64,000 nucleotides of DNA from Candidatus Poribacteria bacterium (GTDB lineage Bacteria > Poribacteria > WGA-4E > PCPOR2b), in the NCBI GenBank assembly GCA_965116925.1, contig OZ220744.1:4064001-4128000 (forward strand). The letters run 5' to 3'. Shown here piece by piece: positions 19,930-60,947 of this stretch. The position numbers were made by a program, and so were the translations under genes. How positions within the stretch are numbered: position 1 is the stretch's first letter; each line of letters starts with the position of its first letter. The notes below the pieces were generated by a model. The model saw nothing but the letters and a program-made list of their open reading frames with translations. It searched no databases and was not told the DNA's origin.

Positions 19930-20148
19930 TAGTGGATCTTAGAATTAATGAGACACGCCAAACCGGTGCGGTTGAATGAAAATTAAAAAACAGTTCGGTA
20001 ATTTGTTAGCGACACCGGCGCGGGGGAAAACCGCGCCTACCGTGTGTTTCGAGGAAAATCGAGATTGCCGATTTAAATACTTAAATCTCATAAAACCGCA
20101 CCTACCAGGTGGAGGGCGAAAGTATCTATTTATTTTTAGATTTCACCA
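19930..20148. mobile_element. MITE family C (TA-duplicating; TIR TAGTGGATCTTAGAATTAAT) containing a family B MITE
   Basis: TA at 19928 and 20149 within TTTAAA; imperfect ~20-bp TIR; homolog at 41295-41513. Confidence 0.8.
19976..20091. mobile_element. MITE family B (IS630-derived, ATGAA...CAT ends) in REP loop
   Basis: Ends match TIR of IS at 58211; inserted in GGTGCGGTTGA|AAAACCGCACCTAC with 1-bp A duplication. Confidence 0.85.
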
Positions 20149-39586: not shown

Positions 39587-39819
39587 ATGAAGATTAATTT
39601 ATTAATTGGGTAATTTCCGAGCGATGTCCGGTGCGGTTGGATGAAGATTAAAAAAATAATTCGGTAATTTGCTAGCGACGCCGGCGCGGTTGAAAACCGC
39701 GCCTACCGTGTGTTTGGAGGCAAATCGGGATTACCGATTTAAATACTTAAACTTCATCCAACCGCACCTACCGGGTCTGGGGAAATATAGAATTACCCGT
39801 TTAATTTCTTAAAACCCAT
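39587..39819. mobile_element. Nested family B MITEs (outer 39587-39819, inner 39641-39757) in a GTAG-REP hairpin
   Basis: GGGCGGGGCAAG|outer|GATGCCCCGCCTAC (1-bp G dup); inner left end identical to IS630 left end; empty REP at 39683-39706. Confidence 0.9.
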
Positions 39820-41118: not shown

Positions 41119-41193
41119 CGGATAAGCGGTTAGGATACCACTTCCCGATTTATCGGGATACTGTTTCCAACTGTGCCTATGCGGTGCGGTTGA

Positions 41194-41717
41194 ATGAAAA
41201 TTAAAAAAACAGTTCGGTAATTTGCTAGCGACACCGGCGCGGTTGAAAACCGCGCCTACCGTATGTTTCGAGGAAAATAGGGATTACCGATTTATAGTGG
41301 ACCTTAGAATTAATGAAACACTCCAAATCGGTGCGGTTACATGAAGATAAAAAAACAGTTCGGTAATTTGCTAGCGACACCGGCGCGGTTGAAAACCGCG
41401 CCTACCGTGTGTTTCGAGGAAAATCGAGATTACCGATTTAAATACTTAAATCTCATCAAACCGCACCTACCAAGTGAGGGGCGAAAGTGTATATTTATTT
41501 TTAGAATTCACTATAAATACTTTAGGACTTACGCAGTTGAATGGTCAAAGCCTTGTAGTTCGGCGATTCATCACCGCAGGATACTGTTTCTCATACCCGA
41601 TGAATCGGGCAACTACAGTATCCCCCTCTATCCCCCCGCAAGCAGGGGGAGGGAAGAACGCGCAATGAATTGCGCTACTACAAACCGAAGGGCGTAACTC
41701 CTATACTTAAACTTCAT
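41194..41717. mobile_element. Composite nest: MITE B (41194-41717) containing MITE C (41295-41513, itself containing MITE B 41341-41456) and MITE A (41523-41703)
   Basis: Duplications readable for every layer: A (1 bp), TA, C (1 bp), TACTT (5 bp). Confidence 0.9.
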
Positions 41718-41798
41718 AAAACCGCACCTACCGGCCCCGATAATTAGTTTACCCCGATTTATCGGAGGGATCGAAATCGAGGGGGCGAAAGTGTATAT

Positions 41799-42515: not shown

Positions 42516-42557
42516 TGAAGTTCTCTATTATATGGACGAAATTTGGTTATACATCAT

Positions 42558-42649
42558 GCCTCAAATAAAAAGAAAGTGCAAAGCACGAAGAGAAACCGAG
42601 TTTTCAAGAAAAAACTCGGTTTCTGTTGCATGATTTCTTAACATGAGCA
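42558..42649. mobile_element. MITE family D
   Basis: Exact 8-bp TSD TACATCAT; internal GAAACCGAGTTTT/AAAACTCGGTTTC hairpin. Confidence 0.85.
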
Positions 42650-42727
42650 TACATCATTTGTCTTTCGACAGCTAAACCCAGAAAAAGTTTACAGTCTTTT
42701 CAAGATACTCAGTTGAGGAGGTTTTCT

Positions 42728-44071: not shown

Positions 44072-44089
44072 AGGAGTTGAATTGGGAAA

Positions 44090-45178
44090 ATGAATAAGTA
44101 TAGAGTTGCGGTTGTCGGTGGGGCGGGAACTTGGGGGAGCAGGTATCTACACGCCTACGCCACCCATCCAGCCTGCGAAATTATTGCATTGGTTGACCGT
44201 GCCAAAGACCGCAGACAGACTTTCGCTGACCGATACAGCGTTGAAGTTGTCTTTGATTCGTTAGATGATCTGTTAGCGAGAGAAGTTCCCGACATCGTTT
44301 CGGCGATTCTCCCGACTTCGCACAATCCTGATGTGGTGATCGCCTGCGCTGAGGCTGGCGTCAAGGTGGTCTCATGCGAAAAACCGATAGCGGTTGAACT
44401 GTCTCAGGCGGATGCGATGGTGCGTATTTGTCGTGAGCGGGGCACCGTTTTCAGTTGCGGTAGTGTCTACTCAGGTGTTCCGTATCTGTTAGAGACAATT
44501 GATTGGATCGGTGCCGGGAATATCGGCAAGCTTACCGCTGCTGCGATTCCGAGTGGATTGCCACGTGAAGTATCGGGCGGGGGCTGCGTTCAACTGACGC
44601 TGCTTCCGTTGCTCACCGGTATGGAGGTGGAATGGGTCGAAGGTTGGACGTTACCGCCGGACTTGGACTGGATGCCGCCGGTTGATGTTTCTGCGTCGGA
44701 GATTGACTGTCCCGCCTATGGTCGTCTGGGGTTGTCCAACGGCATCGTCTGTGAGATTCCTGTGCCACCGACCGAACCGGGTGGATCCTGTCCGGTCATG
44801 GTCGCGGGGGAGAATGGGCAGGTGTGGATGACCGGTCCTAAGCCTGTGTTTATTCAAGGAAGCGGTGCAGCTTCGACTCCGGTTTACCCTGATTTTCTTG
44901 ACACCCCTTCACCCGACGACTTCTTTACGCGCCGGATTGAGTGGCTCATGCAGGCGTTTGATACGGGTCGGGATGTGCTGGACAGTGGGCATGGATATCG
45001 TCAAGCGTTGGAAATTGCGATTGCGCTGAAGCAATCTACCGAGGGTGGACACCGACGGATTTCTTTGCCGTTGGCGGATCGCTCGTTGCGGATAGTTCCG
45101 CATCCCTATCGACTGTTGGGGGGTGATGTGGCGGGTTGGGAGAGTATTGGCTATAGGGGTCCGCCGAACGCTGAGTAG
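44090..45178 (+). CDS. Gfo/Idh/MocA family oxidoreductase
   Basis: VAVVGGAG, CEKPIA motif. Confidence 0.9.
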   Translation: MNKYRVAVVGGAGTWGSRYLHAYATHPACEIIALVDRAKDRRQTFADRYSVEVVFDSLDDLLAREVPDIVSAILPTSHNPDVVIACAEAGVKVVSCEKPIAVELSQADAMVRICRERGTVFSCGSVYSGVPYLLETIDWIGAGNIGKLTAAAIPSGLPREVSGGGCVQLTLLPLLTGMEVEWVEGWTLPPDLDWMPPVDVSASEIDCPAYGRLGLSNGIVCEIPVPPTEPGGSCPVMVAGENGQVWMTGPKPVFIQGSGAASTPVYPDFLDTPSPDDFFTRRIEWLMQAFDTGRDVLDSGHGYRQALEIAIALKQSTEGGHRRISLPLADRSLRIVPHPYRLLGGDVAGWESIGYRGPPNAE

Positions 45179-45347
45179 ATTTATGGGATAGGTGTGAGGA
45201 GGTTCAGGGTGCACGTTCAATCCAGCCTACGGACTGATATAGTTGTCTGAATCGCGGATTAAACTGATGACGCGGATTGCGCGGATTATTGTTTGCGTGG
45301 ATTATTGTCTGAATCAGGATTTAAGGATTAGCAGGATAAGAACTACT

Positions 45348-47456
45348 ATGAAATCTCCGTTCTCTCGTCTTCTCGTTTTCCCGTCCTCCCATTTTCTGAT
45401 TTTTGCCGTCGTGGCAACCCTTCTCATATCCCAAGCAGCTGCTCAAGTGGTAGAAATCCCCGACCCAAACCTTGAAAGCGTCATCAGGGAAACTCTGAAT
45501 ATCCCCGACAACAGTCCTATCACCCAGCAGGAGATGTTACGACTTACCAAACTCAATGCAAGACAGAAACAGATAGCAGATCTAACAGGTTTAGAATATG
45601 CTATCAATATAAGATCGCTTATCCTTCCGCACAACAACATAAGCAACCTTAACCCACTGGCAAACCTAACCAAGTTAGATCATCTAGGGTTGTGGGTAAA
45701 TCCGATTTCAGATTTATCTCCACTCCAGAACCTCACCCAATTAAGAGGGCTTGATCTCGCCGGTTGCCGTATCTCAGACCTAACGCCTTTATCTCAGCTA
45801 ATACGATTACAATGGCTGACCCTCCAGTGGCAACAAGACACATGGATAACTGACATCACGCCACTAGCGAATCTAACAAACCTACGTGATGTAAAGTTGA
45901 GTGGCAACCGGATTGTCAATACAAGTCCCCTTGCAAACTTAACCATGTTAGAAATCTTGTGGCTTGATAACAACAGAATCAGTAATCTCAACCCACTCGC
46001 TCAACTGACCCAGTTAACAGAGCTTCGTATTGAGGGTAACTCGATTATTGATTATACTCCACTTGATGAATTGTCCTTGACAGATCTTATTCGTGACGAA
46101 GTTTGTAAACTCCCCGGACTTCCAATCCAAGACCGAATCGAAAATCGCAATCTGCCCGCTATTTTCGCACCCTGGAGAGAGACAATCATTAACCGTCCCG
46201 ATCTATCAAGTGAAGATCGACTGTCATACCACGATTTGTATTGGCAGTATCCTCCTTTCGGACTTCGGTTCAAACTCACCCCACAAGGTTATGAACTCAG
46301 CGGTAACATAGGAGACGCACTATCAAGACGCGATGCGTTACTCGCCAAGACCCCCAACATGCTTATACTCGCTGAAATCCGTGTGCGGGATGCAGATATC
46401 GGTTTTCATTATCCCGAAGATTGGCCACATTGGCTGAGAGATGAGGCAGGAAATCTAGTTAAGAATCCAGAAACGGATTCTGTTTTCTTAATAGATTTCA
46501 GGAAGCCCGAAGTCCAAGACATCATCATTCAAAGAGTCGCTGCTGTTTCACAATGCGGATTATACGACGGCATTTTGATTGATTGGTGGAACGAAGGCAG
46601 CGTTACACTCGCAAGTCCCGACTGGTCTATACACTACACCACCGCAGCAGAAGAATTGGAGATAAAAACCTCACTGCTCAGGCGTATCCGCGCCCAGGTC
46701 CCCAACGATTTTCTGATAATCAGCAATAACAATCGACGCAAACTTCCGTTCTCAGCACCGTACATGAACGGCAGCTTTATGGAAACCTTCCGAGACAGAG
46801 TAAACGGACACTTTGAATATACCCGTGAGGGAATTATCGAAATTGAAGATGCACTCATCTGGTTAGAAGCGAATATGAGAGCACCCCAAATCAACTGCTT
46901 AGAGGGGTGGGGTATCCCAACCGAATCGCCAGACAGCCCGAATAATCGGCGATGGATGCGTCTCTTTACCACCATGAGTCTCACGTTGTCCGACGGGTAT
47001 GTGCTTTATAACGTCGGGTGGGACAGGACTCAATCTTTCCCCGGACACCACCATCACTGGTATCCGTTTTGGGATGCGAATCTCGGACAACCCGCCGGAC
47101 CCACCGCACAACGCTATCAAAACATCGAGGGATTGTATATTCGAGAGTTCACCAACGGTTGGGCTGTGTATAACCGCAGTGGTAAAGCCCAAACCATCTC
47201 TCTGCTAGCATCTGCTACCCCTGTCTCCGATAGGGGAAACAACGCTGTATCTCAGACCCACCTCCTCCCTGACCTTGACGGCGAAATGTATCTCAAAGCC
47301 AAAAATCCCGCTGATGTCAACGGCGATGGAAAAGTCAACATTTTGGATTTGGTACAGGTCGCCAACGGACTCGGTAAATCCGCTCCAGACCCCAATGGTG
47401 ATGGCGTGGTCAACATTCTCGATTTGGTCTTTGTCGCCCAAGCCTTCAGCCAGTAG
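45348..47456 (+). CDS. Secreted internalin-type LRR + putative glycoside-hydrolase-like domain + dockerin-like protein
   Basis: IPDPNL cap, ~8 LRRs (L..N.ISDL.PL..LT.L), DG..ID TIM-like region, DVNGDGKVNILDLV duplicated. Confidence 0.8.
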   Translation: MKSPFSRLLVFPSSHFLIFAVVATLLISQAAAQVVEIPDPNLESVIRETLNIPDNSPITQQEMLRLTKLNARQKQIADLTGLEYAINIRSLILPHNNISNLNPLANLTKLDHLGLWVNPISDLSPLQNLTQLRGLDLAGCRISDLTPLSQLIRLQWLTLQWQQDTWITDITPLANLTNLRDVKLSGNRIVNTSPLANLTMLEILWLDNNRISNLNPLAQLTQLTELRIEGNSIIDYTPLDELSLTDLIRDEVCKLPGLPIQDRIENRNLPAIFAPWRETIINRPDLSSEDRLSYHDLYWQYPPFGLRFKLTPQGYELSGNIGDALSRRDALLAKTPNMLILAEIRVRDADIGFHYPEDWPHWLRDEAGNLVKNPETDSVFLIDFRKPEVQDIIIQRVAAVSQCGLYDGILIDWWNEGSVTLASPDWSIHYTTAAEELEIKTSLLRRIRAQVPNDFLIISNNNRRKLPFSAPYMNGSFMETFRDRVNGHFEYTREGIIEIEDALIWLEANMRAPQINCLEGWGIPTESPDSPNNRRWMRLFTTMSLTLSDGYVLYNVGWDRTQSFPGHHHHWYPFWDANLGQPAGPTAQRYQNIEGLYIREFTNGWAVYNRSGKAQTISLLASATPVSDRGNNAVSQTHLLPDLDGEMYLKAKNPADVNGDGKVNILDLVQVANGLGKSAPDPNGDGVVNILDLVFVAQAFSQ

Positions 47457-47840
47457 TATCACGTCTCTTTGCCTTCCTCCCACCATCAAAACGGATTCGT
47501 AACGCTATTCGCAAAACAATTTCTTCCATCTACCACCTGAAATCTGATATAATGGACGACTAAAACGTGAAACGTGAGAAGAAGGCTCTTGCCGTGTTCT
47601 GTACCTGAATCTGGATTTGGGGGATTTATACATCAGTCGCTCCACGATTGATTGAACTGACGAACCCGATACATAGCACTCCGCTGGAGTGCGGGGATTG
47701 GACGCATTGCTTTTCTATAGACATATCGCTCCTCTGGAGCGAAGGGAAGAGTACTTCAGCTTTAACGGAAAAACCGATGGATTTGCAATAGGTGGCATTT
47801 AGGTTAATTATAATTGATACTTTTGAAGGAGATACAAATA

Positions 47841-48431
47841 ATGGAAGCATTTAAGGAACATGTTGGACTTGCAGCACCGTTGAATCGGTTGAATGTAGAC
47901 ACCGATCAGATTATTCCTAAGCAGTTTCTCAAACGGATTGAACGTACCGGTTTTGGACAGTTTCTGTTTTATGACTGGCGGTTTCACGATAATGGAGATC
48001 CGAATCCGGACTTTGTCCTGAATGATCCCCGTTATCAGGAGGCGAGTATTCTGGTTGCTGGGGCGAACTTTGGCTGCGGCAGTTCGCGGGAACATGCGCC
48101 GTGGGCGTTGCAACAGTACGGGTTCAAGGCAGTTATCGCGCCTTCATTCGCAGACATCTTTCGTAACAACTGCTACAAAAATGGCCTCCTACCCATCGCT
48201 CTGTCGGACGATGTGATTACTGGCCTGATGAAGCAGATCGAAGCACAGGAAGGATATAGGTTGATGATTGATTTGGAGGCGCAGCAGGTGGTTCAGCCTG
48301 ACGGGACCGCACACCCCTTTGAAATCGGTGATTTTGAGAAGCATTGTTTGTTGAATGGCTTGGATGAGATTGGCTGGACGTTGCAATTTGATGAGCAAAT
48401 CTCAGCGTATGAAGGGCGAATCGGAGATTAG
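47841..48431 (+). CDS. leuD: 3-isopropylmalate dehydratase small subunit
   Basis: [33 protein letters not shown]. Confidence 0.97.
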
Positions 48432-48594
48432 TATAATCTAATTGGTGCATTTGTTCATTTCACAAGCTGGGAACCCTGATTTCATTGAGGCAGGCTCTAC
48501 GGTACGATCACAGATTAGGAAATCTGTGGCTACGAGGGAGGACGGCATACGGAGCCCCGATAAAATCGGGCCTGGAGTGTGGGAGGAGAGCTCT

Positions 48595-51123
48595 ATGACT
48601 GAAAAACAGGTTACACTGCCCATAACAGGGATGCACTGTACAAACTGTTCGGAAACCGTCGCCCGTGAGCTAGGGAAATTAGAAGGTGTGAGCGCGGCAA
48701 ATGTCAACTACGCCACCGAGAGAGCAACGGTCGCTTTTAACCCATCTGTACTGGATGAAAATGTCATCATTGAGAGAATTAAAGACAGCGGCTACGGGGT
48801 GGCGATAGGCGCAATCGAATTGCCGATCACGGGGATGCACTGTGTCAACTGTGCCGCGAGCGTCGAAAAGGCACTTAACACGCTGCAACCGGGCGTGGTC
48901 TCTGCGACAGTAAATTTCGCTACAGAGAAGGCACAGATAACATATCTCCCCGGTCAAGTGACTCCCACCGATCTTATTTCTGCCGTTGAAGGGGCAGGCT
49001 ACGGTGTCGTCGAAGCGGATCCCGATCAGCAACTAGAAGATGTTGAGCAGGCTGCCCGCAAAGCCGAAATCGACGAACAGACGCGGAAGTTTTGGACTGG
49101 TGCCGCTTTTTCCCTCCCGCTCTTTATTTTTAGCATGGCTCGCGACTTTGCGCTATTAGGGACTTGGTCTGACGCCCTTTGGGGCAACTGGTTGATGTTT
49201 GTTCTTGCCACGCCGGTACAATTTTACGTAGGGTGGGACTACTACACAGGTGGCTTCAAAGCGTTACGCAACGGTGCTGCCAACATGGACGTGTTAGTTG
49301 CGATAGGGTCGTCCGCTGCCTTCTTTTACAGCTTGCCTGTCACCGTTGCGTTGACGTTGGGCAGCACTGCCTTAGGCAGCCATGTCTATTTTGAAACTGC
49401 GGCGGTCATAATCACCCTAATCAAACTCGGTAAACTGTTAGAGGTTCGTGCGAAGGATCAGACCAGTGCTGCGATCAAAAAGTTGATGGGTTTGCAAGCG
49501 AACACAGCATGTGTGGTGCGTAACGGTGAAGAGATTGATATTCCCATTGAGCAGGTGGCTGTTGGCGACGTGGTGATCGTACGACCGGGAGAGAGGATTC
49601 CTGTTGATGGAGTTATTGTTGAGGGCAATTCTACTGTTGACGAGAGTATGCTCACCGGAGAGAGCATACCGGTGGATAAGGGAGAGGGTGACCCGGTAAT
49701 TGGTGCGACCATCAATAAACAGGGGCGGCTCAAGCTTGAAGCGCACAAGGTTGGTGCAGAGACCGCGCTCGCACAGATTATCCGACTCGTCCAAGAGGCG
49801 CAGGGGAGCAAAGCACCAATTCAGCGTCTCGCTGATCGGGTGGCGAGTGTTTTTGTGCCCGCTGTCATTGCAATAGCGACTGTGACCCTGCTAGTTTGGT
49901 GGTTTATCATAGACGTTGGTTTTACACCATCAATGATCCGGATGGTAGCGGTATTGGTCATCGCTTGCCCTTGCACACTTGGGCTTGCTACGCCGACTGC
50001 TATTATGGTCGGCACAAGCAGAGGGGCGGAACAGGGGATCCTTTTCAAAGACAGCCAGGCACTTGAACTTGCTCATTCGCTCAAGGTGGTCATTCTTGAT
50101 AAGACTGGCACGATTACGACAGGTGAGCCATCGGTGACGGATGTAGTGATTGCAGAGGGTGACAGGTCAAGCGTTATCACCAAAGCGTTAGGGAATGGGG
50201 GCGAAATAGAAGAGAGACAGAAGGAAGAAGCTGCAATTCTCTGGTTGGCTGCTTCGGCGGAGCGGGGGAGTGAACACCCGATTGGTGAAGCCATCGTACG
50301 AGCGGCGCAGGAACGTGGGCTGTCATTAGCGGAGCCCTCCCGGTTTGAAGCCTTAGCCGGACATGGCATCCTCGCTCAGGTCGAAGAGCATCAGGTCGTC
50401 TTGGGCAACCTCAAGATGATGGGCGAGCAGAATGTCGATCTCAACGATTTGGGAGCTGAAGCGGCGAAGTTACAGGCGGGGGCGAAAAGCGTGATCTGGG
50501 TTGCTGTTGACGGCAAAGCTGCCGGGCTGATCGCTGTGGCGGATACCATCAAACCCGGTTCCAAGGAAGCTATTGATCAGATGCACCGTCTCGGTTTGCA
50601 GGTGGTGATGGTCACCGGCGATAACCGAACTACGGCAGAAAATATCGGCAACGCTCTCGGAATTGATCAGATCCTCGCTGAAGTCCTGCCGGGGGATAAG
50701 GCGGCGGAAGTGAAGAAGCTACAAGGAAACATGGAGGGGGAATCTCAAGCTATCGGAGGTGTGGCGATGGTTGGCGACGGTATTAACGACGCACCGGCAT
50801 TAGCCCAAGCGGATGTGGGCATAGCCATCGGCACAGGCACCGATGTGGCGATGGAAGCGGCTGATGTGACTCTGATAAGCGGTGACCTGCGGTCTGTGCC
50901 ACAAGCGATTGCCCTCAGCAAAGCGACGATGCGCGTTATCAAGCAAAATTTGTTCTGGGCTTTTTTTTACAATGTCCTCCTCATTCCGGTGGCAGCGGGT
51001 GTGCTGCACCCGTTCACCTTCCTGCCGATGATGTTACGGGCACTGCACCCGGTGTTGGCTGCCTGCGCTATGGCTTTTAGCAGTGTGACCGTTGTCTGCA
51101 ATAGTTTACGGATGAAGCGATAA
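48595..51123 (+). CDS. copA: Cu(+)-translocating P1B-type ATPase
   Basis: Two GMHCxxC HMA domains, [24 protein letters not shown] and MAFSS motifs. Confidence 0.93.
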
Positions 51124-51131
51124 TTGATTTA

Positions 51132-51238
51132 TGGTAGATTTTAGAATTAATTAGACGCTCCCAATCCACAACCAACCCCCTAAATCCCCCTTATCAGGGG
51201 GACTTTGGTAAATGTCTACTTATTTCTCTGATTTACCA
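51132..51238. mobile_element. MITE family C variant with CCCCTAAATCCCCC cargo
   Basis: TA|TGGTAGATTTTAGAATTAAT ... ATTTACCA|TA. Confidence 0.65.
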
Positions 51239-51274
51239 TATTTTGTGAAGGTCCAATACCACAAGGAAACAACC

Positions 51275-53593
51275 ATGAAGATTTGTGAGCCCCTTAGAGG
51301 TATCGTTTTCTCTGTGATGTTCCTGATCTACCCCGTTTCGGCCTTGGCTGACGACTATTTCGATCAGATCACAGTTTTCTCTCACGGCAGGATCACCCGC
51401 TTTGTCGAAATGCCGATAACTGTTTATATTACACCGGCGTTACAAGCGGCATACCTTCCCGCGCTGCGGTATGCGATGCAGCAGTGGGAAGCGGTCTCCG
51501 ATGGAAACATTCAGTTTCAAGAGTTACAAACGAGTAAGGACGCTGATATTTGGGTGCGTTGGGGACATGGCGAAGCAGCCTACATGGATATGACCTATGG
51601 AAAGGCGGAGCTCACACGCCACCGCACCGGGGATTTCTCCGTCGAAATTATCCTCTCACTACCTAAGCCTTCGTTATCAGAAAAAGTGTCGCAGGAAGAG
51701 ACTCGAACAGTTTGCCTTCATGAATTTGGACATGCTATCGGGCTGTGGGGGCATAGTCCTGATCCACTTGACGTGAGTTTTTGGGCGTCAATTGCACAAC
51801 GTCCAACCGCTCGGGATCGAGCAACATTACTGAAAGTTTATGCCACGCCACAAAACACGCCTCAACACGATGCTGCCATTAACATCTTAAAAAAGCAGCT
51901 CGCAACCAACCCAATGAACGCACGCACACATTACCTGCTAGGGACCATCTACGACGACAAGGGAGAGACTGAGTTAGCTGTTGCTAGTTTCAAAGCCTGT
52001 CTTGAAATAAACCCAGACTTCGACCCGGCACGGGAAACCCTTCTACAGGTATACCAGAGAGTTGGTCTCTCCCAACAAGCGGTGGACCTACTTGAAGAAA
52101 CACTCAAGCAGATGCCTTCGTCCAATGATTACAACACAATCGGTGTGATGTACTATCGGACCGGAGAAATCGACCAGTCCGTAGCTGCTTTCCGAAAATC
52201 GCTCGAAATGAACCCCTACGACCCGACGCCTCGGAATAATCTTTATCAGATATTTCGGGAGCGAGGTATCGAGGCACTGAACGTTAAAGCGTATCAAAAA
52301 GCGGCGATGTATTTTGGCGAAGCACTCCAGTTCAAGCCGGAGGATGCGCTTCTGTATCGCCTTATGGGCGATGCTTATGCGAGGGAGGGTAGCCTCAAAA
52401 ACGCCATCACGCAATACCGTAAGGCATTTGAATTCGATCCAGCCGACTTGGAAATCAAACAGAATCTCGCGGGGTATCTGAGCAATTATGGTGTAGAGTT
52501 GACAGGCACCCGGCGTTGGGAGGAGGCAATCGCTGCCTATCAGGAAGCACTACAATTGACTCCAACGCTGAATATCGCGTATGCAAACCTAGTGGATGTC
52601 TTGTGGAAACGCGCCAATACGCATCGCAAATCAGGGCATATCGACAAGGCGATTGATGCCTATCTCCAACTTATTCAGGTAGATGCTGATGCCGATGCAC
52701 ACAGTTTACTCGGCGAACTGTATCTGAAAAAGGGGGCATATCCACAGGCGATTGAGGCATTCCGGTCAGCGTTTTCCGCAAAACCTGATGATTGGCAATC
52801 TCGTAAGAACCTCGTTGCTGCCTACCATCATTACGCACAACACCTCGACAGCAAAGAACGGTACAATGAAGCAATAGGTCAGTTACGGCTTGCGCTTGCG
52901 CTGTCTCCCAAACAGGTGAACCTCCGCTTGAGTCTCATCAATACTTATCAACTTGCCGGCGACTTTTCAAGTGCCGAAAAAGAGTTGGAGTGGCTTTTGG
53001 AAAATACACCTGAGAGTTTACAGGCAGAAAACATCTCAAAGAATCTACACGTTGCACGCGGGAATACGCTCATGAATCAAAGAAGCTATACCGCCGCGCT
53101 TGCCGAGTTTGAAAAGATCGCCCCCTCGGCAAAAACCACAGAAATTTATAACACCATCGGTTATCTTTATCTGTTGAGAAGACAGCCAATTTTAGCGATA
53201 GCGGCTTTTGAATCCGCGTTAGCTCTTACGCCGACAAATAGAATTGCTTATCAAAATCTGTTGTCAATTGAATCCCAATTTGAGCGGCAGTTTGTCGATG
53301 ACCGGCATTCACCACGCATTAAGAACCACCTTGCTCGTGCGAGAAATAGTCTTGTCGTGTGCTATATCCATCGTGATGAACTTCTAGACGCTGTAGAGGA
53401 ATATCGCGCAGCGTTAGATGTTGAACCAACGGCGAAGGAAGTGAAAGTCGCACTGAGAGATACCGGCAGACAGTTAATATTGGTGTTACAAGAAAAGAAT
53501 GCACGTCAGCAGATAAGCGATGTAATGGATTGGATTCAGGAATTGGACGTTGACAGTTTGAGCGTTGAACAGTTACTCGACGGTGACAATTAG
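51275..53593 (+). CDS. Secreted matrixin-like (metzincin) peptidase fused to long TPR array
   Basis: HEFGHAIGLWGHS zinc motif; >10 TPRs; signal peptide. Confidence 0.85.
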   Translation: MKICEPLRGIVFSVMFLIYPVSALADDYFDQITVFSHGRITRFVEMPITVYITPALQAAYLPALRYAMQQWEAVSDGNIQFQELQTSKDADIWVRWGHGEAAYMDMTYGKAELTRHRTGDFSVEIILSLPKPSLSEKVSQEETRTVCLHEFGHAIGLWGHSPDPLDVSFWASIAQRPTARDRATLLKVYATPQNTPQHDAAINILKKQLATNPMNARTHYLLGTIYDDKGETELAVASFKACLEINPDFDPARETLLQVYQRVGLSQQAVDLLEETLKQMPSSNDYNTIGVMYYRTGEIDQSVAAFRKSLEMNPYDPTPRNNLYQIFRERGIEALNVKAYQKAAMYFGEALQFKPEDALLYRLMGDAYAREGSLKNAITQYRKAFEFDPADLEIKQNLAGYLSNYGVELTGTRRWEEAIAAYQEALQLTPTLNIAYANLVDVLWKRANTHRKSGHIDKAIDAYLQLIQVDADADAHSLLGELYLKKGAYPQAIEAFRSAFSAKPDDWQSRKNLVAAYHHYAQHLDSKERYNEAIGQLRLALALSPKQVNLRLSLINTYQLAGDFSSAEKELEWLLENTPESLQAENISKNLHVARGNTLMNQRSYTAALAEFEKIAPSAKTTEIYNTIGYLYLLRRQPILAIAAFESALALTPTNRIAYQNLLSIESQFERQFVDDRHSPRIKNHLARARNSLVVCYIHRDELLDAVEEYRAALDVEPTAKEVKVALRDTGRQLILVLQEKNARQQISDVMDWIQELDVDSLSVEQLLDGDN

Positions 53594-53611
53594 AACAACT
53601 GGAGGGGATAA

Positions 53612-54973
53612 ATGGAGGGACTACGGAATATCAATTCAAGGTTAGAGTTGTTTGTAGATGATTGGCTGATCGAGGAGATGAATGGCGTTGACCTTCAAAT
53701 GCACAGTCCCATCTCTCAAGAGGTCGTCCTTGAGTTCAATCAGCCGTGGGAGGGATCGATAAGTTATGACCCGGTGGTGATGAAAGAGGGCGATCGCTAT
53801 CGGCTGTGGTATCGGGGGTGCGGTTCGGAATCGACATGGGAAGACCAATGTACAGCCTATGCAGAGAGCACAGATGGCGTACATTGGGAACGTCCTACGT
53901 TGGGAATCTTTGAGTTCAACGGGAACCGGGAAAACAACATCGTCCTGCAAGGGACCGAGGCGAAGGCGTTGTGTGTTTTCAGAGATGGCAACCCGAATAC
54001 GTCAGACTCGGAACGCTACAAAGCGATTGGGGTAGGTCCTCCAATAGATAAACGTGCGACATTGCGAGGGTTTACCTCCCCAGATGGAGTACATTGGCAG
54101 ACGCTGGATCGAGATCCGATCTTGATAGCACCAGACGATCCGTGGCCCATGTTTGATTCCCACAACGTTGCATTCTGGGATACGATGCAAGACCGGTACG
54201 TGATATATGCACGGGGTTGGATTCCGCCGGGCATCCGATCCATTCGCCGAAGTGTTTCAGATGACTTCCGTCATTGGTCCGACTTGGAATTCATTGATCT
54301 GGGAAATTCGCCAATAGAACATCTCTACAAAAACGCCTGCACACAGTATTTCCGCGCGCCCCACATTTACCTGATGTTCCCCAAACGTTTTGTCCCTGAC
54401 CGTAAGTTCGATAAGGATTGGCCAGCCAGCGGTCTCTCCGAAAGTGTTTTCATGACCAGCCGCGATGGCGTACACTGGGATCGGCGTTTTATGGAACCAT
54501 TCTTGGGGCTTGGATCCGATCCCGACAGTTGGACAGACCGAAATCTGTACATTGGCGTGGGTGTTGTTCCAACGGGATCTGCAGAAATGTCGGTCTATTT
54601 TATGGAGCATTACCGGCGTCCATCTATCCGCCTCCGGCGCGGTGCACTCCGAACCGACGGATTTGTCTCCGTTAATGCGCCCTACGCCGGCGGTGAATTT
54701 TTGACGAAACCGTTGATTTTTGAGGGAGATAAGTTAGTCGTTAATTACACGACATCTGTAGCGGGAGGCTTGCGCGTTGAAATCCAAGACGCCAACGGAC
54801 AGCCAATTGATGGGTATCGGTTATCTGAGTGTGTTGAGATTTTTGGGGATGAAATTGAGCGGGTTGTCAGATGGGAGAACGGCAGCGATGTTAGTTCGTT
54901 GGCGGGTAGGGCGGTTCGTCTCCGCTTTGTTATGGCAGCGGCAGACCTGTACGCTATACAGTTTCGAGTATAG
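53612..54973 (+). CDS. Hypothetical beta-propeller glycosidase-like protein
   Basis: Repeated S.DG.HW Asp-boxes, LR.DGF.S motif. Confidence 0.6.
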   Translation: MEGLRNINSRLELFVDDWLIEEMNGVDLQMHSPISQEVVLEFNQPWEGSISYDPVVMKEGDRYRLWYRGCGSESTWEDQCTAYAESTDGVHWERPTLGIFEFNGNRENNIVLQGTEAKALCVFRDGNPNTSDSERYKAIGVGPPIDKRATLRGFTSPDGVHWQTLDRDPILIAPDDPWPMFDSHNVAFWDTMQDRYVIYARGWIPPGIRSIRRSVSDDFRHWSDLEFIDLGNSPIEHLYKNACTQYFRAPHIYLMFPKRFVPDRKFDKDWPASGLSESVFMTSRDGVHWDRRFMEPFLGLGSDPDSWTDRNLYIGVGVVPTGSAEMSVYFMEHYRRPSIRLRRGALRTDGFVSVNAPYAGGEFLTKPLIFEGDKLVVNYTTSVAGGLRVEIQDANGQPIDGYRLSECVEIFGDEIERVVRWENGSDVSSLAGRAVRLRFVMAAADLYAIQFRV

Positions 54974-55006
54974 ATTAGGAAAAGATGATAGAGATGCGTG
55001 ACAAAA

Positions 55007-55432
55007 TTATTCATCTTTATCCTTTTGCTCTCCATGATGACCTTCCGGTTGCTGATTGTTTATACCGATGAGATGAAAGAATAGTTTGTCCAGTTTGTCC
55101 TCAATTCTGTCCATTCTTGCATTGAGATTACCTGACAGATTATCTATTTTGCCGTTCAGTCCTTTTTCTATGCTGTCTATTTTGCCGTTCAGTCCTTTTT
55201 CTATGTTGTCTATTTTATCGTCCAGTCTGTTTTCCCTGTTGTCGATTTTCTTATCCAGACCATCTATCTTCTTATCTAAACTATCTAACTTGTCGTTAAT
55301 ATAGGTTTGTTTGAAGTGGATTCTTACGACATAGGCTATTAAACCAGCAAAAACAGATAGACTTGCGACAACGCGAAAAACTATTGAAACCCAATCTTCA
55401 AAGATGAGATTTTCCATGATATAGTCCTCCAT
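55007..55432 (-). CDS. Small membrane-anchored coiled-coil repeat protein (Bdr/DUF1640-like)
   Basis: One TM then KID repeats; 33-bp tandem duplication encoding IDxIEKGLNGK; AT-rich. Confidence 0.6.
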   Translation of the reverse strand: MEDYIMENLIFEDWVSIVFRVVASLSVFAGLIAYVVRIHFKQTYINDKLDSLDKKIDGLDKKIDNRENRLDDKIDNIEKGLNGKIDSIEKGLNGKIDNLSGNLNARMDRIEDKLDKLFFHLIGINNQQPEGHHGEQKDKDE

Positions 55433-55628
55433 GGCTCATGTTAAAAAACCGTGCAACAGAAACCAAAATGTAAAGTGTGATATTGGAAGGATGGAAGGTT
55501 GGTTTGCCTCCTTCCATCCTTTCCCATGGCATCAGCAGAAACTTGGAAGATTGGTCTTTCTTGCTTTGGTTCTACCCATGTTGATAGCATACGAATGTGC
55601 CAAATTCACACTGATGAATAATCGCTTA

Positions 55629-56588
55629 CTAGCCGATATTTAGGTAACGTGCTGCATCGGCTTCCTGCCATTGGAACTGTAGGTGTGCTGTTTCGTGTGG
55701 CTTGAAGGGCTTTATCACCTCATCAATAGGTGTGCCTAACACATCAATCCGCTCAAGATCTGCGACCCCGTAACCCATTTCATCCGCATAGTGGAACAGA
55801 CCGATCTCCAACGGTTCAAATCCCATCGCCTTCGTGGTTACGGCGTCCGCAGCAAACACATCAGCACTGGCAACAGCAATTCCGAGCGGAATCGAATCTG
55901 TACCTCCGGGACCGTTCCCCTGCAAGCCAAGGGTGCCGTCAATCACAGCGATATCCGGGCACAGATGGCGTGACAGGCGAATCAGATTGATGTTCAGCGT
56001 TTGCGCCTCACGCGGCAATTCTCGATCGGCGTGGCTATGGTAGCCGTGCATTTTGATACGATCTGAGAGATGGAGCGTTCCCATAATCATGTTTTTGAGG
56101 GCAAGCGTCACCACATCGACATCGTGCGTTTTTGCAACCGCAACAGAAATTGTGCATGGACAATCGAGCACAGTTTTGGGCATCCGCACGGGCACTTCGC
56201 TGCGATCAGCAAGAACGACGGGAGTCTCTTCCCAATTCTCATCTTGATGCAGGTCTACTAGCCGAATCGGAATGGCATATTCGTCGAGCAAAGATTTGTA
56301 ACCGAAATTCTCGAACGCCTCTCCCGAAAATGCTTGGTTGGCACCTTCTGCGATGATAATCTCTTTTGGTGGTTCCGGCACAGTCAGCAAGAAGTCCATT
56401 GCGCCACGGATTGCGTCAACGTGTGATGAGGCGAGCTGATTTGTGCTGGAAAGGAAATTCGGCTTCAACATCACCTGCTCGCGCAACTTTGGTGTGACAT
56501 CGTCGCGCACGAGGTCCAGAGCGGTGAAGACATTTTGGCGTCGCTCGCCGGTTCGGGCAAGTCCGACTCTCGTTTGATTGGTAGCCAT
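55629..56588 (-). CDS. DUF362 family protein
   Basis: LKPN, KTH..VTLALKN..G, IDG..G..GNGP, D..AAD. Confidence 0.85.
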   Translation of the reverse strand: MATNQTRVGLARTGERRQNVFTALDLVRDDVTPKLREQVMLKPNFLSSTNQLASSHVDAIRGAMDFLLTVPEPPKEIIIAEGANQAFSGEAFENFGYKSLLDEYAIPIRLVDLHQDENWEETPVVLADRSEVPVRMPKTVLDCPCTISVAVAKTHDVDVVTLALKNMIMGTLHLSDRIKMHGYHSHADRELPREAQTLNINLIRLSRHLCPDIAVIDGTLGLQGNGPGGTDSIPLGIAVASADVFAADAVTTKAMGFEPLEIGLFHYADEMGYGVADLERIDVLGTPIDEVIKPFKPHETAHLQFQWQEADAARYLNIG

Positions 56589-56709
56589 CGGCATCCTCCT
56601 TGTTTGTTTCACATTTCCACATTTTCCTCGCAATATAACATCTGAGGAATAGAGCAATTCAGGAAAAGTCGTTGAGTGGTAGCGGGCGAGATGAGATCGC
56701 CCGGACTGT

Positions 56710-57477
56710 CTAAACTAGAGAGTTCAGCATCTGGGCAAAACGGGGAACGGCGGTCATTGCATCCTCGGCGGCTTCATATTCAATTGACAGATACCCTTTG
56801 TAACCCTGTGCCTTGAGCATCCTGACGATTTCGGAAAAATCTGCTTCCTCCTTGTCGTCGCTTCCTTTTGGGATCTCTGTCTTTGCATGGGCGGTTACGG
56901 CGTAAGGGGCGACACGCGCCAGCGAACCGTAGGGGTCTTGACGGAAGTTGCCTGTATCCAAATTCACGCCGACCCACTCGGAATCAACCGACGTAATCAG
57001 ATCGATAACCTGATCTGCTGTAGACGTTATCCCTCCGTGATTTTCCAAAGCCAGCAAGACACCGCGAGGCGCAGCGTATTCCGCACACTCCTTCAAACCG
57101 TCGATTGTCCATTGGCGGGCTTCCGCCTCACTATGCCCTTCAGGCGTTCCTCCCGCAAACAAACGCAGGCAGGGTGCTCCAAGTTTAACGGAGATATCAA
57201 CCCAATCCTTGACATACTCGATCTGTGCTGCACGTTCACCGGGGTCAGGGTCTGTGAAGCGATTTCCAACAGCTGCTGCCGAAACCTGTAACCCAAGAAG
57301 GTAGCATTGACGTTTCAGGGTGTACAAATAATCATCGTCCGTTGACGGGAAATAGTAAGCGGTCAATTCGACGCCGTCTACGTCCATTTCGACCGCTTTT
57401 TCAAGAAAACCTTCGAGACTCATTTCAGCACTTGTCAAATACTGGCGAAATGAGTAGGCGGCACATCCAATCTTCAT
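56710..57477 (-). CDS. Sugar phosphate isomerase/epimerase (AP endonuclease 2 TIM barrel)
   Basis: LALENH, NLDTGN, HAK, SIEYE. Confidence 0.9.
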   Translation of the reverse strand: MKIGCAAYSFRQYLTSAEMSLEGFLEKAVEMDVDGVELTAYYFPSTDDDYLYTLKRQCYLLGLQVSAAAVGNRFTDPDPGERAAQIEYVKDWVDISVKLGAPCLRLFAGGTPEGHSEAEARQWTIDGLKECAEYAAPRGVLLALENHGGITSTADQVIDLITSVDSEWVGVNLDTGNFRQDPYGSLARVAPYAVTAHAKTEIPKGSDDKEEADFSEIVRMLKAQGYKGYLSIEYEAAEDAMTAVPRFAQMLNSLV

Positions 57478-57484
57478 GGTTGGT

Positions 57485-57874
57485 CTATGCCTCCTTACGT
57501 TCCAGCAGCTCAATTTCGTAGCCGTCCGGATCGTCAATGAACGCCATCTTCATGCCGCCCGATGTGAACTGTTCGCGCCAACCGTCGGGCCAAATTTCAA
57601 TACCGTCCTTCTCCAACGTGTCACAGTAAGCGACGAGATCTGGAACCCCAATGGCGAAGTGCATTAAATCCTCCGGGACATTGAGTTCATAATCGGGTGA
57701 ATAGGTTAGCTCGACGGTGTGCAGGTTACCGGGTAGTTCCAGATGTGCAATCTGATTACCGGCAGGCGATTTGTCGCTTCGACTTTTAACGACAAAACCC
57801 AGATGATCGCAATACCAATTAATTGATTTATCGAGGTCACTTACTCGAACGCGGGTGTGTAAAAAAACAGCCAT
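57485..57874 (-). CDS. VOC family lactoylglutathione lyase-like protein
   Basis: LHTRVRVSDL, ELTY, HFAIGV, DPDGYEIELLE. Confidence 0.9.
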   Translation of the reverse strand: MAVFLHTRVRVSDLDKSINWYCDHLGFVVKSRSDKSPAGNQIAHLELPGNLHTVELTYSPDYELNVPEDLMHFAIGVPDLVAYCDTLEKDGIEIWPDGWREQFTSGGMKMAFIDDPDGYEIELLERKEA

Positions 57875-58210
57875 TTGGTTTCCTTTCTGTTGTCGATTTT
57901 GGATGAATCAATTGAGGCAGAAATGCTATGAATAATGATAACACACCCTCCACTATCAAGCAAGCCCTTTTACAACTGAATCCGATCTCAGGGGACTTTC
58001 GGAATATTCGTATTGAAAAATGGTGTTAGATGTGAGATAGTTATAGAAAGTTCATTGGTTTATTGATTGATTGAACTGATAAACTCTATACATCGCGCTC
58101 CTCATGAAGATTAATTTATTAATTGGGTAATTTCCGAGCGATGTCCGGTGCGGTTGGATGAAAATTAAAAAAACAGTTCGGTAATTTGCTAGCGACACCG
58201 GCGCGGTTAA

Positions 58211-59451
58211 ATGAAGATTAAAAAAATAATTCGGTAATATTGTTATTTGTGTTATCGTAGTGCCAAAGGAGGTATTCTCTGATGGCAAAACATCATACAC
58301 TTGAATTGAGTGAATCCGAAATCCAAGCCCTGGTTGAACTCCGAGATAAAGGCGAACCGGCTTATCTCCGAGAACGAGCAACGGCACTGTTGAAAATACA
58401 TCAAGGCGTTTCTCCGCATGAAGTTGCACGTAAGGGCTTGTTGAAAAAACGCGACCCTGACACCGTCTATGCGTGGTTGCGTCGCTATCGCGAACAAGGT
58501 CTGCGTGGGCTGTCTCATAATCCCGGTCGGGGTCGAAAACCTGCTTTTTTCCCCAAGTCGGCTGAAATGGCCAAATCAGAACTCTTACAAGCTATCGGTC
58601 AAGATCCGGGGCAAATCCCTCCGTATCAAACCCGCTGGACGCTGCACACACTCGGTCAGGTCGTACCCTGGTTGCGGGACATCTCTGTGCCGGGCATTCA
58701 CCAAATCCTCTCACGGGTGGGGATCAGCTATAAGCGTGCCAGAGACTATGTGCGGAGTCCGGATGTCGATTATACTGAAAAACTTTCTTGCGTCCAGCAC
58801 GCTTTAGAAACTGCACGTGACACGCTGGAAACTTGCGTTGTGCTTTACCAAGATGAGTTTAGCTTCAAACGACAACCGACCCTCGCAACAGACTGGGCAG
58901 AGACCGGCACGAAGCAGCCCTTGGCACGGCGCAGTCACTGCTCCGAAGAAACCTGTTATGGCATCGGTGCGCTCAATCCACACACAGGGGAGGTCATTTA
59001 CCAGCAGGTCGAAACCTGCACAGTGGTCGCACTGCATACCTTTTACACACAGATTTGCCAACACTACCCAAAAGCCGAACGTATCTATCTGGTTCAGGAT
59101 AATCGAGCGATACACTTTCATCCGAACCTCACCGCAGCGCTCCTGCAACAGACAACGACGTTTGCCAAACCCACACCGCCTAACTGGACAGGCAAACCGT
59201 CAAACAAAATCGGCAAACTCGCCAAACTCCCTATTGAGATATTGCAACTGCCGACCTATGCCGCGTGGACAAACCCAATTGAGAAGTTGTGGCGCTGGGT
59301 GCGTCAGTCGGTTATACATCTCCATCGGCTCAGTAATGACTGGCAGGCACTTCAAGACAAAGTGCTTGCCTTCATGCAGCAGTTTAAAGACGGGTCACAG
59401 CAACTGCTACACTATGTCGGATTATTACCGAATTAATAAATTAATCTTCAT
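58211..59451 (+). mobile_element. Autonomous IS630-family insertion sequence (1241 bp)
   Basis: 29-bp imperfect TIR ATGAAGATTAAWWWAWTAATTCGGTAATA; single transposase ORF ending in right TIR. Confidence 0.92.
58282..59436 (+). CDS. IS630-family DDE transposase
   Basis: HTH N-term, GRGRKP, YQDE, QDN...H, LPTYAAWTNPIEKLWR; AAGGAGG RBS. Confidence 0.95.
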   Translation: MAKHHTLELSESEIQALVELRDKGEPAYLRERATALLKIHQGVSPHEVARKGLLKKRDPDTVYAWLRRYREQGLRGLSHNPGRGRKPAFFPKSAEMAKSELLQAIGQDPGQIPPYQTRWTLHTLGQVVPWLRDISVPGIHQILSRVGISYKRARDYVRSPDVDYTEKLSCVQHALETARDTLETCVVLYQDEFSFKRQPTLATDWAETGTKQPLARRSHCSEETCYGIGALNPHTGEVIYQQVETCTVVALHTFYTQICQHYPKAERIYLVQDNRAIHFHPNLTAALLQQTTTFAKPTPPNWTGKPSNKIGKLAKLPIEILQLPTYAAWTNPIEKLWRWVRQSVIHLHRLSNDWQALQDKVLAFMQQFKDGSQQLLHYVGLLPN

Positions 59452-59615
59452 AAAACCGCGCCTACCGTATGTTTCGAGGAAAATAGGGATTACCGATTTA
59501 AATACTTAAACTTCATGAAACCGCACCTACCGGGTCTGGGGAAATATAGAATTACCTGTTTAATTTCTTAAAACCCATCTGGAGCGAAATTGGTTATGCC
59601 GATTGTTAGTATGGT

Positions 59616-59650
59616 GTTGGGTTTCACGATTCGCGTTCAACCCAACCTAC
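59616..59650. repeat. GTAG-type REP-like hairpin (similar to 32777-32876 and 45200-45230)
   Basis: GTTGGGTT...AACCCAAC-CTAC. Confidence 0.6.
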
Positions 59651-59705
59651 ACAACCCTATCAACTATCGGGTCGAAATAAGAGACTTGAATTATAGGACT
59701 TTATC

Positions 59706-60947
59706 ATGAATACGATTAAATATTTCCTTATTCTTGCGACGACAATCGCCGTGGTTTCGGTTGGATTGGCTCACGAACCAACAGAAAGCCCTGAACTAGA
59801 TTCCAAATTGTATGAACTCCATTTTCAAGAGGGCAGGGCACACAATGATGGCGGGGATAGAGCACTCGCTCGGAAGCATTTCCTGATGACAATCTACCTG
59901 CATCCCGACCACGCTGGTGCGAACTATCAACTCGGACTGATGGCATATAGCGACAATAATTATTCGGCTGCCATCTCTTTTCTGGAAAGAGCGAGCGTGG
60001 AAATGTCCGATAAGATTGAACTCTATTACTGGCTTGGGGGCGCGTATTGGAAAAAGAGCCAAGCAGAAGGGGCGATAGAGAACTATCGAAAAGCGGTTGC
60101 ACTCGATTCGCAGCACGAGAATCCTTATTCGCTCTATGCGTTAGAGAACCTCGCCGAAGTCTATACCCGGACGGAACGTCTCCAAGAGTCGATGGATGCT
60201 TATCAGGCAGCACTGAAGCGTGAAACACGAAGCGGATGGATTTCTAAAATTAGAGATCAGATTGCTGAGCTTCATTTGACGATGGGCACTTATCAAGACG
60301 ATGGTAATACGCGCTACAATGAAAGAGGCGAAGCGATAGGTGGTATTGGCGATGGGGATATGCGCACCAATCGTTACTTCGAGATAGCGAGACATACGAC
60401 GGATCCGGTTAAAGAGGCAATTTATTATGAGAAATCGATCGAAGCGGATCCAGGGATGTACCAGTCCTATTTTAATTTGGGTTGGGCGTTGACTCGACAA
60501 GGGAAATACGCTGAAGCGGTTCCTGCTTTTATCCGTTCAGACGAAGTTTGGCGACAAGATCGGAACTGGAATCCAGAAGCGTCCCCCAAAATCGACGCGC
60601 ACGCATTTTTAGCACTCTGTTATGTCGAATTAGGGGAACCGGAAAAGGCACTTGATTACGCCGAAATAGCGTTGGGTTCCGCTCCAAATTACTATTACGG
60701 CTTGCTGTATAAAGCGAGAGCGTTGACCAAATTGGATCGTCCTCAAGAGGCAACACAGATTCTGGAAGGGTTGGTTGATGCAAATCCGGACGAAGCCGAA
60801 ACATTGTACGCGCTTTACGAGGGTTATAGCGCAGCTTTAGAGCCAAAATTGGCACTTGCTGCGCTACACCAAGCTGTCCGCGCTCAGGTGGACAGTCAAC
60901 AGAAAACACGTTGGCAACAAGAGATCAACGTGCTGAAAGGGAAATAA
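59706..60947 (+). CDS. Secreted TPR protein
   Basis: Signal peptide; multiple TPR motifs. Confidence 0.85.
   Translation: MNTIKYFLILATTIAVVSVGLAHEPTESPELDSKLYELHFQEGRAHNDGGDRALARKHFLMTIYLHPDHAGANYQLGLMAYSDNNYSAAISFLERASVEMSDKIELYYWLGGAYWKKSQAEGAIENYRKAVALDSQHENPYSLYALENLAEVYTRTERLQESMDAYQAALKRETRSGWISKIRDQIAELHLTMGTYQDDGNTRYNERGEAIGGIGDGDMRTNRYFEIARHTTDPVKEAIYYEKSIEADPGMYQSYFNLGWALTRQGKYAEAVPAFIRSDEVWRQDRNWNPEASPKIDAHAFLALCYVELGEPEKALDYAEIALGSAPNYYYGLLYKARALTKLDRPQEATQILEGLVDANPDEAETLYALYEGYSAALEPKLALAALHQAVRAQVDSQQKTRWQQEINVLKGK

Follow-up and report, generated by a model that had tools for sequence, protein, structure and literature searches.

The stretch of DNA analysed here (the window) comprises 64,000 nucleotides from a Candidatus Poribacteria bacterium (contig OZ220744.1, positions 4,064,001 to 4,128,000; G000:C1:4064001-4128000 in the numbering of the genomes compared) and is part of a single-contig genome of 6.47 Mb with 49% G+C. 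At positions 58104-59578 it was found to carry a nest of four layers, in which a short hairpin with the arms CGCTCC and GGAGCG holds a miniature inverted-repeat transposable element (MITE), here designated M1, which holds a second MITE, designated M2, which in turn holds a full-length insertion sequence (IS) of the IS630 family. From left to right, the order is CGCTCC-TC / M1 58104 / M2 58158 / IS 58211..59451 / M2 ..59516 / M1 ..59578 / CT-GGAGCG (Table 1). The inserted layers all open with ATGAA[AG] and close with CAT (CTTCAT for the IS and M2, AAAACCCAT for M1), and each is located between the two arms of a hairpin belonging to the next-outer layer. The terminal inverted repeats (TIRs) of the IS are imperfect, 25 of 29 positions matching when counted by eye; the extent of the IS and its ATGAAG...CTTCAT ends, first proposed in a reading of the sequence alone (the sequence-only reading), were confirmed when the sequence was re-read. 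A second full copy, 98.6% identical, is present at G000:1430426-1431666; the genome contains only these two, and both sit inside the internal hairpin of an M2 copy. It is considered likely that this is an active IS630-family IS which, with the two non-coding families M1 (115 bp) and M2 (117 bp), inserts at the centre of palindromes instead of at TA and duplicates a single base pair.

Table 1 Features of the nest at 58104-59578 and other M1 and M2 insertions. Positions are those of the window.
Feature	Position	Strand	Remarks
Outermost host hairpin, left half	58096..58103	+	stem CGCTCC and loop bases TC; read directly
M1-type MITE, left arm (115-bp family)	58104..58157	+	ends with GGTGCGGTT, one arm of its own hairpin, followed by GG
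M2-type MITE, left arm (117-bp family)	58158..58210	+	ends with GGCGCGGTT, one arm of its own hairpin, followed by AA
Full-length IS630-family IS, 1241 bp	58211..59451	+	starts ATGAAGATTAA, ends TTAATCTTCAT
Transposase gene, 384 aa	58282..59436	+	N-terminal HTH domains and DDE_3 catalytic domain
M2-type MITE, right arm	59452..59516	+	AAAACCGCGCCTACC ... AAACTTCAT; read directly
M1-type MITE, right arm	59517..59578	+	GAAACCGCACCTACC ... AAAACCCAT; read directly
Outermost host hairpin, right half	59579..59586	+	CT and stem GGAGCG; read directly
M1 copy	39587..39819	+	in hairpin GGCGGGGCA-AG|GA-TGCCCCGCC(TAC)
M2 copy	39641..39757		nested in internal hairpin of M1 39587; flanks GG|CC, a perfect palindrome that breaks the same-base rule
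M2 copy	41194..41717	+	in GGTGCGGTT REP, flanks GA|AA; right arm interrupted by a TA-duplicating MITE
M2 copy	41341..41456		flanks AC|CA; fills the REP carried by the TA-duplicating MITE inside M2 41194-41717
M2 copy	19976..20091	+	in GGTGCGGTT REP, flanks GA|AA; REP carried by a TA-ended MITE

The transposase is the single open reading frame between the TIRs of an element within the 1-1.4 kb range, an organization seen in IS630. It matched the NCBIfam model NF033545 (IS630) at 161.1 bits (cut-off 100) and the Pfam model PF13358 (DDE_3) at 71 bits (cut-off 28.6), together with several helix-turn-helix (HTH) models, and only models of these kinds reached their curated score cut-offs. An AlphaFold2 model, for which 40 sequences were aligned, had a mean predicted local distance difference test (pLDDT) score of 92.4, and its best matches in Foldseek were the Mos1 structures 3HOS, 5HOO and 4U7B (E-values 1e-9 to 1e-8), the catalytic domain of Sleeping Beauty (5CR4) also being found, whereas a search of PDB by sequence gave no transposase match. 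The model predicts an RNase H-like catalytic fold preceded by paired N-terminal HTH domains, as in Mos1. The assignment to IS630 made in the sequence-only reading is therefore borne out by the family score, by the DDE_3 and HTH domains and by the Mos1-type folds. The proposed catalytic triad, assigned from the alignment and its invariant columns, is D191, D273 and E334, such that 61 residues separate the last two (DD61E), compared with the usual IS630 spacing of about 35. The IS630 family norm is a TA target with duplication of the TA. Thus, the element belongs to IS630 by its protein and fold, yet fails the duplication that defines the family.

All of the flanking bases reported earlier for the eight insertions in the window were recovered, namely A|A at 19976, 41194 (right end 41717) and 58211, G|G at 39587 and 58158, and C|C at 41341 and 58104, with the exception at 39641 reading G|C within GGTTGG/CCAACC. 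In seven of the eight the right arm runs into CCTAC, and the two empty-site analogues that had been pointed out are present, GGCGCGGTTGAAAACCGCGCC at 39683 and CGCTCCTCTGGAGCG at ~47728. At ~47728 the hairpin CGCTCC-TCT-GGAGCG is uninterrupted, as it also is in the relative G014 at the orthologous spacer.

A census was then made across the whole genome with ends defined by homology alone, and it yielded 97 simple full-length MITE copies (74 M2 and 23 M1); the counts given here refer to this set, as pairing of ends by stacking had mis-paired a few nested copies. The 115-117-bp copies have the attributes of MITEs, being short, non-coding and multi-copy and sharing their ends with an autonomous element, since the first ~30 nt and the last ~30 nt match those of the IS. 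Around 83 of the 97 copies the flanks form a perfect Watson-Crick stem that is 5 bp or longer and begins no more than 3 nt from the junction, as against only 0.32% of 200,000 random positions (binomial p ~1e-190), so the location in hairpin loops noticed in the window holds genome-wide and insertions are concentrated inside, not outside, hairpins. Most of the remaining 14 are in recognizable hairpins, one arm of which has a mismatch or was later interrupted by an insertion. Exactly two unpaired nucleotides were left on each side in 74 of the 83 copies with perfect stems, and the same base was found on both sides of 77/97 copies, compared with 26.8% at random positions (p ~5e-27), far above chance. 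The host stems fall into 15 unrelated families with no common sequence, though 13 of the 15 have a 5'-pyrimidine...purine-3' closing pair and the loop is mostly R-N-A. In the main type of repetitive extragenic palindrome (REP) the elements may point either towards the CCTAC tail or away from it. The elements thus enter palindromes at a fixed point with two nucleotides left on either side and one base doubled, whatever the sequence of the arms and without bias of orientation. The identity of the copies is 87-100% for M1 (mostly 95-100%) and 87-97% for M2, and their activity is therefore recent. The orientation of the elements could not be compared with the direction of replication, as the cumulative GC skew of the genome rises almost monotonically from a minimum at 0.31 Mb to a maximum at 6.26 Mb, is not two-armed, and does not allow the origin and terminus to be placed.

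The duplication of one base pair was seen directly at five insertions for which an orthologous empty site could be aligned in sister genomes, each empty site having a 3-nt loop whose central base is doubled when filled. The copy at G000:929987-930113 lies in CATCGTT-TA|AT-AACGATG, and the empty loop reads TAT in G011 and G005. At G018:3258010-3258126 the filled site is CGCTCC-TC|CT-GGAGCG and G000 has TCT; at G000:6197564-6197680 it is GGGCAGGTT-TC|CC-AACCTGCCC, with TCC in four genomes and TCT in three; and at G000:4926031-4926145 it is GGCATAC-GG|GA-GTATGCC, with GGA in four genomes and GGC in one. The fifth is a full-length IS in G008, CACAATCT-AA|AC-AGATTGTG, where G000 has AAC, the right flank being aligned over 420 bp and the left flank only in part. 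In four genomes (L217, L219, L222 and L229, in G007, G009, G010 and G011) the hairpin orthologous to that at G000:4926031, GGCATAC-GGA-GTATGCC, holds a different small insert in or beside its loop, GCCCCGATGAATCGGGATTCAAAGCAA-like and longer in some genomes, and other elements too may use hairpin loops.

The loops of unoccupied REPs agree with these comparisons. The main hairpin type is an abundant imperfect palindrome with a GTAG/CTAC tail, as is typical of REPs, and 205 empty copies of G[CT]GCGGTT-loop-AACCGC[GA]CCTAC were found, of which, read in the orientation of the tail, 192 have 3-nt loops (including GAA 55, ACA 52, GGA 36 and GCA 17). The halves of filled sites fit these loops when divided as xy|yz: AC (21) with CA (24), GA and AA (15) with AA (17), and GG and AG (13) with GA (11).

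As ATG...CAT can in every copy be parsed as AT + GAAG...CTTC + AT, the ends might have been set wrongly, the element being GAAG...CTTC with an AT duplication, or its true ends lying further out with TA. A 2-bp duplication would indeed be normal for the family, and it was observed in two relatives. The first, a sister IS with 36% protein identity (Poribacteria G079 and G057), has the homologous ends ATGAAC...GTTCAT with TA on both sides in 5/5 copies, within CC-TA-GG. The second, IS2, is a 906-bp IS630 element of the same genome with the ends TGGTAGAT...ATCTACCA and a 284-aa DD35E transposase, and is flanked by TA in 4/4 copies (G000:C1:5427283, 4551166, 3213319 and 3110021, outside the window); one IS2 copy sits in the right hairpin arm adjoining an M1 copy. 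Against misplaced ends, the empty junctions TCT, TCC, GGA and AAC contain neither AT nor TA, and an AT duplication would require the TAT site to be 3 nt longer. Moreover, TA directly abuts the ATGAAC ends of the sister IS, so that the terminus must be the A of ATGAA, and the ancestral behaviour is thereby seen. Misplaced ends had already been refuted by the orthologous empty sites and are scarcely credible; those sites exclude the AT parse and a TA duplication, and the base doubled is single and variable.

The same sites also exclude hairpins built around the elements. It might be supposed that the arms are long variable terminal repeats of the element itself, or that REPs were built later around MITE ends by the REP-associated tyrosine transposase (RAYT) system, nothing being targeted at all, given that inverted repeats flank every copy and that REPs are themselves mobile. 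Near-identical MITEs have differing arms, drawn from 15 stem families, ~188 REPs of the two main types are empty, and the same hairpins are uninterrupted at the orthologous place in sister genomes. By this last observation the supposition had already been contradicted, and it is very improbable.

Among 151 Poribacteria genomes sampled, the transposase was found in 35, belonging to three genera and two families, and the hairpin behaviour holds over this clade of ISs with 57-100% protein identity in three genera. In one genome all ten full copies (10/10) are in hairpin loops with same-base flanks. A further 35 full copies (57-84% identity) all end in ATGAAG...CTTCAT; 20 combine matching arms with identical flanking bases, in eight the arms match and the bases differ, and in seven the arms are mismatched (recombinant). 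One 68%-identical clade member (L280, G040:C4:388362-390513) is flanked by CTTGAA-TA|TA-TTCAAG, a perfect palindrome with an apparent TA duplication, and is possibly an intermediate between the two target modes.

When proteins of the hairpin clade were aligned with those of the sister IS and IS2, the alignment disclosed a conserved lysine-rich segment of ~26 residues (roughly TTTFAKPTPPNWTGKPSNKIGKLAKLP) between D273 and E334 of the hairpin clade, at about residues 290-317, which the sister IS and IS2 do not have, their motifs being DD36E and DD35E as against DD61E. In the AlphaFold2 model the insert is placed with confidence and lacks regular secondary structure. Among 1.84 billion representative proteins searched, it is present in many more distant relatives (31-46% identity) and missing from others. 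For 80 metagenome loci of the insert-bearing group, a motif-anchored search placed ATGA..TCAT ends in 24 and both flanks in 22; eight of these 22 are surrounded by a perfect palindrome of 6 bp or longer, and several others by an imperfect one. Their junctions include TG|AA (8), TT|TA (5), TA|TA (2) and CTT|AAG (1), and insert-bearing relatives from other metagenome records carry ATGAAC ends. It is therefore probable that palindrome centres are targeted well outside Poribacteria too. The insert is a candidate determinant of the change of target, as suggested by one clear evolutionary contrast together with this wider pattern.

Insertion takes place at the dyad centre of short palindromes, whatever their sequence, mostly REP-type hairpins with a 3-nt spacer, leaving two nucleotides between each arm and the element and doubling the single central base pair. 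Such a duplication implies two strand transfers offset by one nucleotide around the dyad, and on paper each transposon 3'-OH would attack, on its own strand, the phosphodiester on the 5' side of the central loop nucleotide. As the arms share no sequence, recognition would have to read symmetry or structure and not bases, for instance a hairpin or cruciform extruded from the DNA or a palindrome centre that is sharply deformable, with the insert near the active site perhaps adapting a TA-flipping enzyme to a hairpin target. The 15 unrelated stem families, without common sequence beyond the Y..R closing pair, support the structure-directed targeting put forward in the sequence-only reading, though for the structure-reading part of the mechanism the chances seem about evenly balanced. 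What is recognized might instead be a sequence or a host protein bound to the REP, as has been suggested for other ISs that seek REPs, considering that 94 insertions, the majority, are in one REP family (GG[CT]GCGGTT) and that the closing pair is 5'-Y..R-3' in 13/15 families with mostly R-N-A loops. This is judged quite improbable, as unique palindromes which are not REPs are also used (CATCGTT, CAACAACA, GCCGAGTTT, ATTATT and AATATCAA), and the stems found with relatives in other genera (CCCCCCTT, GTCCC and GAATGCC) are quite unlike these.

A number of observations weigh against palindrome-centre insertion with a uniform one-base duplication. Flanks are unequal in 20/97 MITE copies, about one in five, the second full IS copy is flanked by GA|CA, eight of the 35 clade copies have different bases between matching arms, and the TG|AA junctions of distant insert-bearing relatives are no simple 1-bp copy. 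Three full IS copies in G007/G008 read GT|AC, and the paralogous empty hairpins in G000 read GTT; either an event after insertion altered the GT|AC sites or the base copied is not strictly a single one. For none of the eight insertions in the window was an orthologous empty site obtained, as whole nests or hairpins are absent in relatives, and two further comparisons were unclean, the orthologous spacer of G000:2957354-2957470 being AT-rich with indels and the loop at G000:4904154 having diverged between species. Finally, both the extruded DNA proposed as the target and the putative causal role of the insert are drawn from one evolutionary contrast.

With regard to the empty sites, the nests or hairpins at 19976, 39587, 41194 and 58104 are missing in G018, G004, G005, G008 and G007, and at the 58104 locus G014 has two CGCTCC hairpins as against one in G000. 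For G000:1421244 and 3443072 the flanks are repeats and an orthologue was not found, and for the G018 copies L164, L165 and L162 the hairpin is missing or has diverged in G000. Public contigs of four runs laid on 40900-59900 gave repeat-driven joints only, with no usable empty allele or footprint.

The unequal flanks recur as two classes, perfect palindromes of the form xy|y'x' (GG|CC at 39641, and GT|AC) and mixes of A and C (GA|CA). Palindromization after insertion in the long hairpin formed by arms and TIRs, recombination between copies, or insertion into rare 4-nt loops are possible origins. In G091 three copies have cyclically exchanged flanks which become GG|GA, AA|AC and TA|AC when paired anew, and recombination between copies therefore does scramble flanks.

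Such copies would also be expected if each end were simply joined 2 nt from the base of an arm, loops of 2, 3 and 4 nt then giving a duplication of 2, 1 and 0 bp, respectively; TA in CTAG would be the ancestral special case, and unequal flanks would mark copies inserted into 4-nt loops. The 2+2 arrangement of 74/83 palindromic sites fits such a ruler, since copies in REP sites that break the same-base rule still keep two nucleotides per side, and so do the G040 copy (CTTGAA-TA|TA-TTCAAG), the junctions of the distant relatives given above, and the existence of empty AGGA loops (4) beside filled AG|GA sites. On the other hand, 4-nt loops make up 10/205 empty REPs and none reads GACA, ACAA or GGCC, the paralogous empty forms of GT|AC sites read GTT or GCT and not GTAC, no empty site was seen among the copies with unequal flanks, and a rigid transpososome should not tolerate three staggers on B-DNA. 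A ruler is rather unlikely on this balance; it is kept in part because the two loops of a cruciform would be distant from each other, a geometry that does not sit easily with a compact transpososome. A broader proposal, that a widespread and hitherto unrecognized IS630 branch with a basic insert of 25-27 residues between the second catalytic Asp and the Glu reads DNA shape in place of the bases TA, that its ends are joined two nucleotides from the foot of each arm, that the loop and not the enzyme sets the duplication (2/1/0 bp) with TA in CTAG as the ancestral state, and that this extends beyond sponge symbionts, can be put forward only tentatively and is on the whole doubtful. If it were true, the MITEs of this branch would spread their own targets as well as REPs for the RAYT system.

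Returning to insertion at palindrome centres, M1 and M2 each carry a REP-type hairpin, and every insertion therefore adds a possible new target. The internal hairpin is intact in 21/23 M1 and 59/74 M2 copies, with the loop GGA in 14/23 M1 and GAA in 41/74 M2, and at least four nests of M2 in M1 were found in the genome. Target-carrying MITEs in this manner give rise to nests of the order hairpin > MITE > MITE > IS. The self-nesting described in the sequence-only reading is consequently real, as both full IS copies being within M2 also indicates, while the strategy that was read into it is interpretation. Hairpins borne by the MITEs are occupied less often than other REPs, with 10 filled and ~60 empty GGCGCGGTT sites as against 84 filled and ~128 empty GGTGCGGTT REPs. 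In some M1 and M2 copies the internal loop is flipped (TCC for GGA, TTC for GAA, TGC for GCA), as if it inverted between the arms.

The GGTGCGGTT REPs are carried mostly by a TA-duplicating MITE. One such carrier (TATAGTGGA...TCACTATA), at ~41287-41516, is inserted with its REP at a TA of the right arm of M2 41194-41717; this kind of carrier, the main supplier of targets, also encloses the REP at 19976 and that at the second IS copy. In the same M2 arm, at ~41517-41699, is a small element with the ends TAGGACTTACGCAG...CTGCGTAACTCCTA and TACTT on both sides, an apparent 5-bp duplication, and its end also adjoins the second IS copy. Two further multi-copy elements are favoured targets in G000, a dispersed double-hairpin repeat, GTAGCGCGAACT-GTT-AGTTTGC ... 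GATCACAATCT-AAC-AGATYGTGGTAC, and the CGCTCC hairpin with ~50 bp of its left context.

Tc1/mariner/IS630 elements are the textbook case of a fixed TA target and a fixed 2-bp stagger, and here a natural clade keeps the fold and the ends but changes both. As a TA-using sister and a discrete 26-residue insert are available, swaps between close relatives could test how a DDE transposase sets its target and stagger. The findings also offer a way in which the densely nested repeats of Poribacteria spacers could arise, and in principle point to an integration activity that is directed by structure and independent of sequence.

The element shares with IS630/Tc1-mariner members (IS630, ISY100, Mos1 and Sleeping Beauty) the DDE_3 and HTH domains, the Mos1-like fold, a single open reading frame, short TIRs and MITEs, and its termini are homologous to those of the TA-duplicating sister IS. 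It differs from them in using a palindrome centre with 1 bp instead of a TA target with a 2-bp duplication, and in its DD61E motif (35-36 residues in the others). TA duplication as the norm of the family is backed by PMC5481204 and by IS2 and the sister IS. Short non-coding derivatives of IS630 type, bounded by TIRs and mobilized in trans, are described in the sections consulted of PMC2817692 for Neisseria (Correia/NEMIS) and S. pneumoniae (RUP). These insert at TA, whereas M1 and M2 enter hairpin loops and carry a hairpin of the target type, which allows self-nesting.

Entry into REP hairpins is a feature shared with IS1397/ISKpn1, DDE-type elements of the IS3 family, which duplicate 3-4 bp. 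IS1397/ISKpn1 have OrfAB and use one REP type, unlike the present element, whose transposase is a single open reading frame without an IS3-type OrfA/OrfB arrangement and which takes unrelated palindromes and copies 1 bp. The specificity of their insertion into REPs or palindromic units has been attributed to the transposase (PMC1525189). Highly selective occupancy of REPs is likewise reported for IS621, ISPpu9, ISPpu10 and ISPa11 of the IS110 family in the portions seen of PMC1525189, PMC12288879 and PMC11208160. These REP seekers have a DEDD recombinase, a bridge RNA which pairs with one target sequence, and no TIRs, unlike the present element with its DDE_3 transposase, clear TIRs and many target sequences. 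In the accessible parts of the open-licence literature, a search separate from ISfinder and TnCentral, no IS630 member with hairpin or REP targeting or a 1-bp duplication was found. A multigenome survey of 2006 listed ISs that use REPs in the families IS3, IS110, IS4, IS256 and IS5, and not in IS630, as far as the part consulted goes (PMC1525189). With the element described here, IS630 joins the families that use REPs.

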